Shown here one piece after another: positions 585 to 58,104 of a stretch of 64,000 nt of DNA. The notes under the pieces were generated by a model. The model was not told the origin of the DNA. It saw only the letters and a list, made by a program, of their open reading frames with translations, and did not search any database. The stretch's first letter is position 1. The number at the start of each line of letters is the position of its first letter. The translations under genes were made by a program, and so were the position numbers. This stretch comes from Octopus vulgaris (Eukaryota), in the NCBI GenBank assembly GCA_951406725.2, contig OX597839.1:40858001-40922000 (forward strand), read 5' to 3'.

Positions 585-775
585 CACATTTTTCTCACTC
601 CGTTTTTTTTTGGGGGGTGGGGCTCTCTCCATATTTGTCCTCTCAATCCTTTCAGTCGAAGAGCGTAAACTCCAAGACTTAAATACTTTTCCATTCTTCC
701 CGAGTGTTAAATTAATACACCTGCTTGTTACTCCCTCACCTGACGTCGTCTTTAATTTTCTGAAACTTTGAAATA
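585..775 (+). mobile_element. Decayed short Penelope pLTR-like element (family H1) with eroded HHR motif at ~648-686
   Basis: ccttt-cagtcga-a-gag..ctc and the downstream 'ctgacgtcgtctt' region align with the better copies at 1770-1975 and 9510-9690; ends in TA-rich sequence. Confidence 0.5.
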
Positions 776-924
776 TATAAAAATATATTTGTGTGTGTGT
801 GTGTCTGTGTATGTGTGTGTGTGTGTGCGCGTGTATATATGTAAGTATGTATATATTTTTTCCGAATATGTAATAGGTGTATACTATGAGTGCTATTTCA
901 TTTTTACTTCAATATATATATATA

Positions 925-1020
925 TACGACGGGCTTCTTTCAATTTCCATCTACCAAATCCACTCTCAAAGCTTTAGTCGTCCTTAGACTATAGTAGAAG
1001 TAACTAGCCCAAGGTACTTG
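925..1020 (-). mobile_element. SINE family A fragment
   Basis: acgacgggcttctttcaatttccatctaccaaatccactc matches the family A body at 62203-62290. Confidence 0.75.
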
Positions 1021-1667
1021 CCTACTTTATTTCCTTTGTTTCTTTATATGTTCTTTGCAGAGTGAGATTGGCGATTTTTCGCTTCAAAAACGGCTTCAAG
1101 CAAAGGATTCACTTGATGTATATTCAGTGTGTGTGCATATATATATATATATATATATATATATATATATATAATACAATATATATATATATATAACAGC
1201 GCCAAAACAATCGTATATATATATATATATATATATATATATATATAAATATACATATATATTTTTATATATATATATATATATATATACGATTGTTCTG
1301 GCGCTGATAAATTTGATAATGGATTTTTCTCTAATTATTTCGAAGGATTTAAATTAAATTTTCAACAAATACTTAACACAAAGCAACAACAAAAACCAAA
1401 AAGAGAGAAATAGAAAAATCAAAATTAAAACAAAGATAAACTTAAAAACAAAAATATTTCTCTATCTCATTTCATGTTTTTTCCCTCTGGTTATAGTGTT
1501 GTTTTATACTTTATTTTCCATGTTGCTCGTAAATGCATACATAATATATGATACACATGAGCACAAACACACAGGAAGACAGACAAACACACACACACAT
1601 ATATTTATATATGTGTGCGTGTTTGTATGTATTTATGTTTATATGTATATGTATATTTTTTTCTTTT

Positions 1668-1750
1668 GGAGTTTTACTTGTTGCAGTCGTTTGACTGCGA
1701 CCATGCTGGAGCAGTGCCTTTTTAGTCGGACAATTCGACACCAGGACTTT
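1668..1750 (-). mobile_element. SINE family A 3' tail
   Basis: ttttacttgttgcagtcgtttgactgcgaccatgctggagcagtgcc matches the tail at 61960-62010. Confidence 0.8.
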
Positions 1751-1835
1751 TCGTCAATTTGTTGCCATGATAGACCGTTAGCTCCTACACGCATTTTTTC
1801 TCTCCTTGTTTCTCTCCTTGTTTCTTTTCTGTGTA

Positions 1836-1873
1836 TCTTTCTGTCGAAGAGCGTAGGCTCGAAACGTAAAAGA
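1836..1873 (+). ncRNA. Minimal type I hammerhead-like motif (family H1, core CUGUCGA) inside a ~1770-1975 element
   Basis: UCUUU-CUGUCGA-A-GAGC(GUAG)GCUC-GAA-ACGU-A-AAAGA: stem I UCUUU/AAAGA, 4-bp stem II, palindromic ACGU stem III, GUA site; A6 replaced by U. Confidence 0.65.
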
Positions 1874-55400: not shown

Positions 55401-56708
55401 TTGATGATATGTTTATATAGCAATTTCTACTTATTAATTTAAGAATAGGAGGCGTGTGTACATGTGTGTATATGCGTGTGTATATAACTATTCACATATA
55501 TGCGTTTATCTAAAATAGTATGTCGGTGTGTGCAATTTAGAATCATTGATTGTTTTTTATGCGCATGTATGTATATATATAAATATATATATATATATAT
55601 GTATACATATATATATATATATGTATATATATGTATATATATATATATATATATATATATATATATATATATATATATATATATATATATATATATATAT
55701 GTGTGTGTGTGTGTGTATGTATGTATGTATGGGCATATATATATTTGTGTGTATGTGTGTGTGTGTGTGTGTGTGTGCTAAAATTTTAATGCATACAAAT
55801 TGCATAGCAATTTATACGCATTAAATTGGCTGGTGTGTGCCCATGTTTACGTATGCGTATATATGTACGTACGAGCTCATTGCTAATTGTGTGTCTGTGT
55901 GTTTATATGCATGCAATTAAGCATAGATACGTCTGTATGTATATGTGTGTATGCATGTGTGCGTAAAAACAGTGTATTTGTATGTGAAAGAATAAGTGTA
56001 CATTTGTTCGCAAGTAGGCATGTATTTGTGTGTGCGTATGCGTGCGTATATTTGTGTTCACGAGGTAGAGTGTTTGCGCCTGCTTACGTGTGCGTGAATG
56101 AATGTATGTGCATCTGTAACCGTCTTTTGAAGAAATACGCAGTAATTTGTATGCATTAAAATAAGTGTCCCCTTTTTTATGAATGTTTGCATGAATTGCT
56201 GCAGCGAAGCGCTATGATACTGTATACATACATACATACGTACATACATACATACATACATACATACATACATACATACATACATACATACACACACACA
56301 CACACACATATACATATACATATACATTTATATATATGCATACACACACACATATATATGTACATACATGCATATATATATGTATGTATATATGTATATA
56401 TATATATATGTATATATATATATAAATATATATATATATGCATGTATGTATGTATGTATGTATGTATGTATATATGTATATGTATGTATGTATGTATGTA
56501 TGTGTATGTATGTATGTATGTATGTATGTATATATATATGCATATATATATATATATATATATATATATATATATATATATATATATATACGTATGTATA
56601 TGCATCATTGTTACGTGAACAATACTGGAGTTTTCAATGCTGATACTGGGTGTAATATATATATATATAAATTGATAGAGAATAAATTTAATTTTCGTAA
56701 AAATATAC

Positions 56709-56782
56709 ATTGTTACTCGGAGTTTCATTCCCATTTAATTAATCGGCTAATTAGATAATTACTTTGGCAATCGTCAGACAAT
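56709..56782 (-). ncRNA. Type I hammerhead ribozyme, near-canonical (family H4)
   Basis: Minus strand: AUUGU-CUGACGA-UUGCCA...UGGGAA-U-GAA-ACUC(C)GAGU-A-ACAAU; GUA site at 56714. Confidence 0.75.
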
Positions 56783-57284
56783 AGTCTTAACGTGAAAGAA
56801 AGAGAAAAGAAACAGAGTTTATTTTTGTTGTTAATTATTAAAAAGACAACGACAGATAACGATATACAATAACTTACTATATGAAAAAATGTTATATTGC
56901 TAACGAACTTATACAAAGTTTTTTTTGGTTTTTTGTAATTAACTTATTTTTTATGTACGTACAAAACTGTTTCATTTATGGCTGTGATTGTTCGGAAATA
57001 GGTAAAACGTGTAAGTAATGGTTACAATGTATGTAATTTCAACATAAAATATAAAATATATATTTAATGGACTACACTCATTACAATTCTTATATTGAAT
57101 ATTTCAACGATTACGCCTTTACACAATTTACATTGCTGTTTACCTCCTTCCTATATATAAACACACACACATATATGCATGCATATATATATATATGTAT
57201 ATGTATATGTATATGTATATATATATATATATATATACATATATATATATATATATATATATATATACATATATTTATTTATTT

Positions 57285-57482
57285 ATTTATTGCCCACAAG
57301 GGGCTAAACATAGAAGAGACAAACAAGGACAGACAAAGGGATTAAGTCGATTACATCGACCCCAGTGCGTAACTGGTACTTATTTAATCGACCCCGAAAG
57401 GATGAAAGGCAAAGTCGACCTCTGCGGAATTTGAACTCAAAGCGTAGCTGCAGACGAAATACTGGTAAGCGTTTCGCCCAGC
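57285..57482 (-). mobile_element. SINE family B
   Basis: Near-identical to 7840-8030. Confidence 0.9.
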
Positions 57483-57522
57483 GTGGGTGTATATAATTAT
57501 ATAATTATATATATACATATAT

Positions 57523-58104
57523 ACTTCAAAAAAGGGATAAAATTTTTCGAAAAAAATTCTATCAATGGCCAGCATATTAAAAAATACCTTTAAAGGTTAA
57601 ATTTATAAACAACTTATAAACAAGAGCAAAAGAAAAAATTTCTAATGCCAAATATGCCGAAAATAGACAAATCGTCAATAACCATATAATTCATCACTAT
57701 AAGCACGCGTCTCGAAGAAAGCCGACAGAAATTTCTCAAAAATTCCGTTATTATCATATCGGCCCCGATTTCAAAGTTAATTCATAAGAATTTTCTCCTC
57801 GTCAGTGATAAATGCGGTAAGAAATAAATGAAATACTTACTTATACCCATGGAAGAAGCAAACACTAAGTCATGAGCACAATTAAGTACCCCAAATATAT
57901 CCAAAATAGAAATTCTCCAGCACACCTCGACTGAAAACTCTCAGAGTGAGAGAGTCCGGAAGTGAACACTATTAAATTTACATCTAATAAAGGATAAAAT
58001 TTTTCGAAAAATTCTATCAATGGCCAGCATATTAAAAAATACCTTTAAAGGTTAAATTTATAAACAAGGGCAAACGAAAAAAATTCTAATGCCAAATATG
58101 CCGA
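57523..58104 (-). mobile_element. Non-coding HHR retroelement (family H5): ~450-bp unit as a partial tandem
   Basis: Direct repeats 57535-57660 and 57992-58104 flank a unique segment containing the HHR; TA-rich sequence at the minus-strand 3' end. Confidence 0.82.
57751..57811 (-). ncRNA. Type I hammerhead ribozyme, near-canonical
   Basis: Minus strand: UUAUCA-CUGACGA-GGAG-aa-AAUUC(UUAU)GAAUU-aa-CUUU-GAA-AUCGG(GG)CCGAU-A-UGAUAA; AUA site at 57757. Confidence 0.8.

Follow-up and report, generated by a model that had tools for sequence, protein, structure and literature searches.

The stretch considered here comprises 64,000 nucleotides (nt) of the Octopus vulgaris genome (assembly GCA_951406725.2, contig OX597839.1, positions 40,858,001 to 40,922,000 of the forward strand; hereafter the window), and it harbours a set of small type I hammerhead ribozyme motifs in short repeats, several of which end at runs of (TA)n (Table 1). 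An earlier note on this DNA, made from the letters only, had counted about ten such folds in at least five families and had seen in them a radiation of non-autonomous Penelope-like element (PLE) or retrozyme families. The present analysis suggests that those motifs which could be traced are the hammerheads of the pseudo-long terminal repeats (pLTRs) of several PLE families, copied into (TA)n mostly as the short ends of protein-coding elements, and an origin from PLEs is in our judgement close to certain. Genome searches covered the assembly of 2.8 Gb in 227 contigs.

Hammerhead folds in the window

The folds are genuine and far above chance. With a relaxed type I descriptor, which accepts cores C[UC]G[AU]NGA and a stem III that is either palindromic or a hairpin, the window yields 5 motifs, whereas 100 block-wise dinucleotide shuffles average 0.02 (maximum 1); a stricter descriptor finds 3 against none in 40 shuffles. 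An excess over shuffled sequence and covariation of the stems had been named beforehand as points on which the proposal could fail, and both are present. The number of folds was overstated, in that only 4 of the 11 named sites are complete: 1836 (+), 9601 (-), 21521 (+) and 57751 (-). A further site, 19942 (-), is borderline, being found by the relaxed descriptor only; its stem II is eroded, but it is a member of a repeated family. The remaining sites are decayed or half motifs, and at 16.8k (5' core gone) and 26.8k (GAAA/stem III half gone) the losses lie at fold-back junctions. No second copy of 28745, 11915 or 56709 was present among the collected genomic loci, nor did a DNA search of the genome with 56709 return more than a single match. 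Focused Rfam scans of sites 21521 and 1836 reported no hammerhead family, and in a scan of the whole window microsatellite and microRNA matches dominate among the matches listed (150 of 736). Minimum-free-energy folds of monomers and dimers seldom yield the hammerhead junction and are uninformative for stems so short.

Covariation was found in both families compared, with 5 of 14 pairs altered on both sides in family C (0 of 500 shuffles had as many) and 3 of 19 in family D (10 of 500 shuffles), figures that in both cases are inflated by kinship among the copies. Stems I and II with covariation (C, D) and a short palindromic stem III are type I features that the motifs show. The palindromic stem III named in the note is borne out, with many different palindromes: CG, CGCG, CCGG, CGCGCG, CGUACG, CAGCUG, CAUAUG, CAAUUG, CACGUG, CGAUCG, CUGCAG and CUAAUUAG occur among the loci, which is the expectation for dimer-forming PLE hammerheads (PMC4209133). 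The core CUGANGA...GAAA...UH is present in families C and D and in the rest of family B; it is absent from family A, which has U at position 6 (U6), and from that part of family B which has C at position 4 (C4). These non-canonical cores were absent from the earlier note. Its count of at least five families holds, here with A, B, C, D and H, and its partial tandems and fold-backs are likewise seen in the loci. More than 15 further hammerhead types with other palindromic stem III sequences, several of them as inverted pairs, were encountered in the genome (L008, L026, L032, L056, L059, L087, L089, L093, L096, L104, L125, L161, L179, L269, L270).

Family A, the end of an intact Penelope-like element

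The most abundant motif is that of family A, whose 30-nt pattern has 14,944 exact matches in the genome (reversed control, 0) and whose downstream 23-mer has 20,437. Upstream of the motif, 4 of 30 loci carry an open reading frame (ORF) with a CxxxxCxxC linker and a GIY-YIG domain, two of them with a reverse transcriptase (RT). A protein search returned 10,415 candidates, many with open frames of >1,000 codons and identical scores. Ten long-ORF loci were fetched. In 7 of them the long ORF lies between two hammerheads at a distance of 4,474-4,573 nt, and the pLTRs of these loci are 99.4-100% identical. The single ORF encodes an RT domain with DKG and YIDD motifs (Pfam RVT_1, E 2.3e-7) and, at its C terminus, a GIY-YIG domain, the latter matching Pfam at E 0.008, below the curated cut-off. 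The endonuclease has the linker CSRPRCRTC, of the CX2-5CxxC type, two Cys between IIY and YIG, and two His (CCHH). Because of the paired hammerheads, the near-identical pLTRs and the combination of RVT_1 with GIY-YIG, family A is the end of a young, intact PLE with a C-terminal endonuclease (pLTR, about 4.5 kb in which an RT is followed by a CX4CxxC linker and GIY-YIG, pLTR).

By the published linker and CCHH definitions (PMC8557442), as distinct from placement in an RT tree, the element is of the type of the Neptune/Nematis clades. It shares with them a single ORF, an RT with DKG, a CX2-5CxxC linker, a C-terminal GIY-YIG with CCHH, a hammerhead in the pLTR and a bias for microsatellites (PMC8557442), and differs in its U6 core and in a short UA-rich stretch at the priming site that matches the target. 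At one locus (L062) a family A copy stands beside a broken second PLE with Hydra-like endonuclease features, on the minus strand, and a separate ORF resembling those of long interspersed nuclear elements (LINEs).

The core of family A

Position 6 is U in 152 of 155 family A copies, and the core CUGUNGAA is found in 95 of the first 100 genome matches (hand count) of a pattern that leaves this position free. All four letters occur at position 7, and A or U at position 17, the pair of positions that hammerheads leave free. In 81 copies from several subfamilies no other hammerhead position is strongly variable (67% minor letters at 7, 25% at 17), while the upstream flank of the same copies varies by 11-59%. 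Related families keep A6 (L162, L164, L189). Published PLE hammerheads have the consensus core CUGANGAH (PMC4209133), from which CUGUNGAA departs, and the searchable supplement of that survey holds no CUGU core. In the literature searched, A6U together with hammerhead occurred once, in a paper on the twister ribozyme; Lunse et al. 2017, on small PLE hammerhead variants, lay outside the search and may hold U6 or C4. Descriptors that require CUGANGA would overlook a U6 core, and published hammerhead counts may therefore be too low.

A conserved CYGAGCG lies about 25-30 nt below the cut and can pair with the 3' strand of stem II, GCUCG, with C/U variation that preserves the pairing (1889-1898 and 9583-9592 in the window; L162, L164, L179). 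It could form a possible alternative fold that turns the ribozyme off.

The 3' junction and probable priming on (TA)n

Family A 3' ends join (TA)n at a fixed base. Of 82 copies, 59 have TATATA starting 72-90 nt past the anchor, compared with 5.6% of randomly chosen places, so the association with (TA)n that had been proposed stands as an exact junction. As mere nearness it fell away: since (TA)4 is found no more than 150 nt from 40% of random positions in the window, closeness to (TA)n is uninformative and was rejected as evidence. In all 8 upstream pLTRs found, the element continues beyond the junction base as TTATATATT, a continuation which would allow a nicked (TA)n strand to pair with the RNA. 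The GIY-YIG domain would thus nick (TA)n, and the nicked strand would prime reverse transcription at a UA-rich site inside the RNA, some 100 nt below where the ribozyme is predicted to cut. We consider priming of this kind highly probable.

Internal initiation, nicking of AT-rich DNA and protein-assisted cleavage have been described for the lizard PLE PAc (PMC11167929), a Poseidon element of Anolis. PAc resembles family A in starting reverse transcription inside the RNA, below the hammerhead, and in its AT-rich target; the two 3' ends (tail) of PAc recur in families B and C. PAc primes without homology, whereas the family A site reads TTATATATT, and its ORF starts within the ribozyme (PMC11167929), whereas that of family A starts about 740 nt below the ribozyme core.

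The 5' ends of family A copies and two possible templates

The 5' ends were mapped against a conserved CGCCATG box above the hammerhead in the first 90 genome places of the downstream anchor, 8 identical copies being counted by eye. Of these ends, 41 lie at -12..+11, 7 at -35..-13, none at -59..-36, 15 beyond -60 and 27 below +11, so that, of the 83 copies extending past the hammerhead, 68 end between it and -35. A second sample comprised the upstream side of 50 loci chosen by RT match and open-frame length only. Of these 50, 29 carry the upstream pLTR and extend through the 5' untranslated region (UTR) as well as the upstream hammerhead; each of the 29 goes beyond the box without stopping there, 23 ending at -137 to -981 and 6 reaching the end of the reference (beyond -1056). 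Among the other 21, two end at +114 and +148, 4 in the 5' UTR, 3 in the ORF and 12 short of the region. Within the young subfamily alone the box stop is seen in 4 of 8 copies against 0 of 29 longer-than-unit copies (Fisher p 0.001). Because none of the 29 longer-than-unit copies stops at the box, the boundary is not a property of the sequence alone. The box has no conserved strong hairpin (z -2.15 to +0.48); weak hairpins span it, and a hairpin stall as the cause of the pile-up is not favoured, since the folds differ between subfamilies and the z-scores are weak.

The contrast between the two samples suggests two RNA templates, one linear and bounded by a promoter, the other seamless and probably circular. 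An RNA starting at the TCAG..CGCCATG box would give copies of about 215 nt that stop at its 5' end, and its source could be the 5' pLTR or else any 3' pLTR that reads through into its genomic (TA)n. The TCAG, about 10 nt above the box, is an initiator-like motif, and CGCCATNTT resembles a YY1 site. The promoter of Penelope lies within the pLTR at a similar distance above the ribozyme (PMC2377424; PMC4209133), and on balance the box is probably an RNA start. In 70 of 73 copies the box also opens a four-codon micro-ORF that ends in a stop (1764-1781 in the window; L085), its middle codons differing between subfamilies; it could be an upstream ORF or a promoter element.

Longer-than-unit copies would come from a template without the box end, and this is the weakest step. 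The template would most likely be a circle of about 4.5 kb, cut at both hammerheads, which would be paired through the palindromic stem III, and ligated; with a U6 core, the cleavage would probably be protein-assisted. Such a circle, already proposed for PLE RNA (PMC4209133), would rebuild the pLTR in each round. Full-length copies likely derive from a circular or longer-than-unit RNA; for the circle itself the odds fall somewhat short of even, since read-through of tandem masters and efficient strand transfer compete with it.

Family B, the end of a Hydra-type element

Family B has 5,841 exact motifs in the genome, with U4 in 59 and C4 in 41 of the first 100 matches (hand count). Its copies measure about 160 nt, are often fold-backs, and show a pair of 3' ends, separated by 66 nt and each lying in (TA)n, which is a tail signature of PLEs (PMC11167929). 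All of 25 loci end in a TA run at the same base, and none of these first 25 was recognised as long. A search with an upstream piece of family B led to copies with a UTR of >1 kb, and three loci reach an endonuclease with a CxCX5C linker, no CCHH, and CxxC and CxH flanking E and N. A free mini-element of 160 nt was accordingly rejected, and family B is the end of a Hydra-type PLE, an assignment that follows from the endonuclease features, the three loci stopping within that domain. These motifs, the insertion into (TA)n and the hammerhead are shared with the Hydra clade (PMC8557442). Family B differs from it in having C4 instead of U4 in part of its copies, in a stem II of 2-3 base pairs with a GNRA loop, and in a gap of >1 kb between stop codon and hammerhead. 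A U4C hammerhead is known in a viroid (PMC3088659).

In three family B loci (L278, L281, L301) a GTAAG resembling a splice donor lies about 200-400 nt above, and an acceptor-like TTCTAG a few bases above, stem I of the hammerhead; many short family B copies start at this TTCTAG. The Penelope intron ends at stem I (PMC4209133).

Families C, D and H

The units of families C (599 nt) and D (about 475 nt) have canonical cores, 32-34% GC and a longest ATG-initiated ORF of 46-47 amino acids. In the best-matching loci, the queries for which favour unit junctions, the 3' end of the unit continues seamlessly into another unit's beginning, in many cases with an inverted piece added. Exact unit junctions number 36 for C and 75 for D genome-wide. 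Among 20 C loci a single one (L130, spacing 599) has two hammerheads one unit apart, none of 20 D loci does, and no multimeric array occurs among these 40. Like animal non-LTR retrozymes (PMC7229834; bioRxiv 2026.07.22.740005), C and D are non-coding, low in GC and arranged head to tail, carry a canonical type I hammerhead and occur next to autonomous PLEs. They differ in being dispersed insertions of 1.1-1.6 units with inversions instead of multimer arrays. C and D behave like non-autonomous PLE derivatives, which likely borrow the enzymes of autonomous PLEs, and this matches the view of retrozymes as derived from pLTRs (bioRxiv 2026.07.22.740005). Family H is a repeated fold-back family.

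Weighing of the explanations

The mechanism by which PLEs regenerate their pLTRs is not obvious (PMC2377424), and the function of PLE hammerheads has been called unclear (PMC8557442), their cleavage being dispensable in vitro (PMC11167929). Here, a very young family in which long open frames are numerous and short copies run to tens of thousands makes the question of pLTR regeneration testable, and the sharp contrast of 68/83 with 0/29 at one box predicts a defined RNA start and a seamless template of 4.5 kb. PLE origin, priming on (TA)n and two templates, taken jointly and with the circle set aside, are the reading that we favour, with reasonable rather than firm confidence. A bolder version, which we hold to be doubtful, would make the U6 hammerhead of the young, active PLE a slow, protein-gated switch: uncut, promoter-bounded RNA would lead to tens of thousands of 215-nt dead-end copies, and doubly cut, ligated circles of 4.5 kb to seamless longer-than-unit insertions that rebuild the pLTR. 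If it were true, the genome would be a fossil record that answers both how PLEs regenerate their promoter and what the ribozyme is for.

Several observations weigh against the favoured reading, the circle included. In tested hammerheads an A6C change lowers activity, and those that naturally have A6C work slowly in Mg, with Mn restoring them (PMC3088659, PMC7151607), so that a U6 motif may be slow or dead. Only 2 of 31 longer-than-unit copies end in the first 340 nt or so of the second round, which a simple circle does not explain, and the box boundary is soft, given the 7 ends at -35..-13. Among 51 listed loci in which (TA)4 lies 12 nt or less from the predicted cut, 24 start at the cut (contigs C1-C12, hand count); a control site with the same TA microhomology has about 16 starts on the same contigs with a longer, stricter pattern. 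No excess of insertions at the cut is therefore claimed, and genomic insertion starts were rejected as a proxy for cleavage. RNA that had not been cut served as the principal substrate in the lizard PLE, where none of the reads terminated at the cut (PMC11167929). The RNA start site, the cut ends and the circle are all predicted from genomic DNA, and no link to an ORF was established for family H or for sites 11915, 28745 and 56709. Assembled contigs of four presumed RNA runs contain family C in short pieces without ends and carry no weight either way.

Alternatively, all the motifs might be plain PLE ends left by random 5' truncation, in which case the pile-up at the box would reflect an early stall of a not-yet-processive RT together with TA microhomology, the tandems would come from read-through of tandem masters, and the hammerhead would be a passenger or inactive. 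Truncation that leaves one terminal repeat is a textbook case (bioRxiv 2026.07.22.740005), the box has the first AT/TA dinucleotides above a pyrimidine tract, microhomology does influence where junctions fall, weak hairpins span the box, and U6 is predicted to impair catalysis. This account is nevertheless unlikely in view of the empty interval at -59..-36 in 90 copies, the absence of box stops among the 29 second-round copies, the weakness of the hairpin z-scores, the near-constancy of the motif across divergent A subfamilies and the covariation in C and D. Less probable again is that short A and B copies propagate themselves in the manner of short interspersed nuclear elements (SINEs), with a promoter of their own, transcription into the flanking (TA)n and copying in trans, in which case the non-autonomous radiation of the earlier note would in effect be correct. 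Short copies do far outnumber long ones (75 of 90), favour one 5' boundary and already have a (UA)n tail, and a downstream promoter element is known in Penelope (PMC2377424); but the main subfamilies in the sample hold both long and short members, one short copy is identical over 120 nt to long young copies, and no short-only clade was demonstrated in a sample that was compared without a tree.

That the population consists mainly of non-LTR retrozymes, that is, tandem non-coding repeats giving small circular RNAs independently of nearby ORFs, is very improbable. The ORF-less tandem units of C and D with their canonical cores, and the two hammerheads of L130 at 599 nt, are what it would lead one to expect. 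It is refuted for A and B, which are linked to ORFs, and the C and D junctions are few (36 and 75) beside the A and B motifs (14,944 and 5,841), with no arrays in the 40 loci. The radiation described in the earlier note accordingly survives in its link to PLEs, its many families, its association with (TA)n, its large numbers and the ORF-less C and D, and has to be given up for A and B, which are ends of autonomous elements with ORFs. The possibility, also raised there, that all families are ordinary solo pLTRs largely applies to A and B.

Abundance and earlier descriptions

In 40 arbitrarily placed 10-kb stretches the relaxed descriptor finds 15 motifs, whereas 15 shuffled sets together contain 3. 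Of the 15 motifs, one seems to be a chance match, and another two are arms belonging to a single fold-back. Scaled by hand, this corresponds to about 105,000 motifs genome-wide (Poisson range about 59,000-173,000), an estimate in the order of 10^5 that differs from the roughly 2,000-9,000 per genome of the PLE hammerhead survey (PMC4209133). For retrozyme hammerheads up to 120,000 are given for axolotl and about 5,000 for mussel (PMC7229834). With some 10^5 folds this genome would rank among the richest on record per megabase.

PLE hammerheads, solo motifs and the targeting of TA are already published. The metazoan pLTR hammerheads of the survey (PMC4209133) share with those described here the type I topology, the extra nucleotide after A9, a stem III that is palindromic or absent, and the presence of many families per genome, mostly as single motifs tied to truncated PLEs with few full PLEs. 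Its searchable supplement includes no cephalopods (molluscs: Lottia, Crassostrea), and among the rows listed from the supplement of PMC8557442 the Octopus entries are only Naiads. A 2026 repeat annotation of Octopus vulgaris reports 31 recently active PLE families, with no mention of ribozymes in the part available (PMC13282606). Literature on hammerhead or Neptune with octopus or cephalopod contained no description of these motifs; the fixed U6 core and the contrast in box stops between short and longer-than-unit A copies were likewise not found in the literature searched. The hammerheads of this genome are mostly explained by known PLE biology, which leaves three points over: a variant core that is fixed in an active family, an unusually high density and the contrast in mapped ends.

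Features of the window

Table 1. Hammerhead-related features and PLE remains, in positions of the window.
Feature	Position	Strand	Basis and remarks
Family A short copy, decayed (site 648); core and GAAA lost	585..780	+	blastn to other A copies, E ~1e-11; fails descriptor
Family A short copy, from GCCATG box to 3' junction with TA	1764..1969	+	Same family as loci reaching the GIY-YIG ORF
Hammerhead of the copy at 1764..1969	1836-1873	+	Core CUGUCGAA (U6); predicted cut after 1868
Family A short copy of a different subfamily; 3' end joins (TA)n	9510..9690	-	Hammerhead 9602-9637, core CUGUGGAA (U6)
Decayed hammerhead-like motif, CUGAAGG core, stem I broken; no family assigned	11913..11972	+	Sequence; fails descriptor
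Family B (Hydra-type PLE) fold-back insertion; 5' core half absent; (TA)n at both ends	16700..16890	-	
Family H copy; eroded hammerhead 19939-19990, CCGAGGA core; stem III palindrome of relatives CAGCUG	19870..20035	-	
Family C insertion	20907..21893	+	Full 599-nt ORF-less unit at 21293-21893, preceded by a partial copy (21008-21292) and an inverted piece (20907-21010)
Canonical hammerhead of the family C insertion	21521-21603	+	
Family B fold-back insertion	26772..26919	.	5' core CCGACGA and stem II kept; GAAA/stem III deleted
Decayed minimal hammerhead 28739-28783, core CAGAUGAA (CAGAUGA)	28690..28850	+	Pyrimidine-rich element ending at (TA)n, by eye seemingly like family A; fails descriptor
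PLE-type GIY-YIG endonuclease relic, one in-frame stop	31574..32031	+	34% identity over 61 amino acids to family A protein, E 6e-8
Old hammerhead 56709-56782, canonical core, stem II eroded, stem III like family B	56672..56800	-	Ends at (TA)n
Family D partial tandem of ORF-less ~475-nt unit; canonical hammerhead 57751-57811	57522..58104	-	

The GIY-YIG relic that had been noticed at 31.6 kb is indeed a PLE-type piece; no hammerhead is joined to it within the window. The window is very rich in microsatellites, and abundant repeats that we take to be SINE-like (15790-16110, 25980-26380, 61960-62370 and others) abut (TA)n as well, so that TA adjacency is not special to hammerhead elements. Other fold-backs, at 52215-52460 and 40270-40860, are flanked by TA or CA runs, have no hammerhead by the descriptor and are possibly other PLE ends. 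A LINE-like RT fragment with a YADD motif (18805-19770) ends in a short A-rich repeat and (TA)n. An element of about 1.27 kb at 46405-47672, with terminal inverted repeats of about 35 nt and TA ends, appears mariner-like by eye and lies inside a tandem repeat, and a tandem array of about six units of some 120-140 nt occupies 62540-63340.

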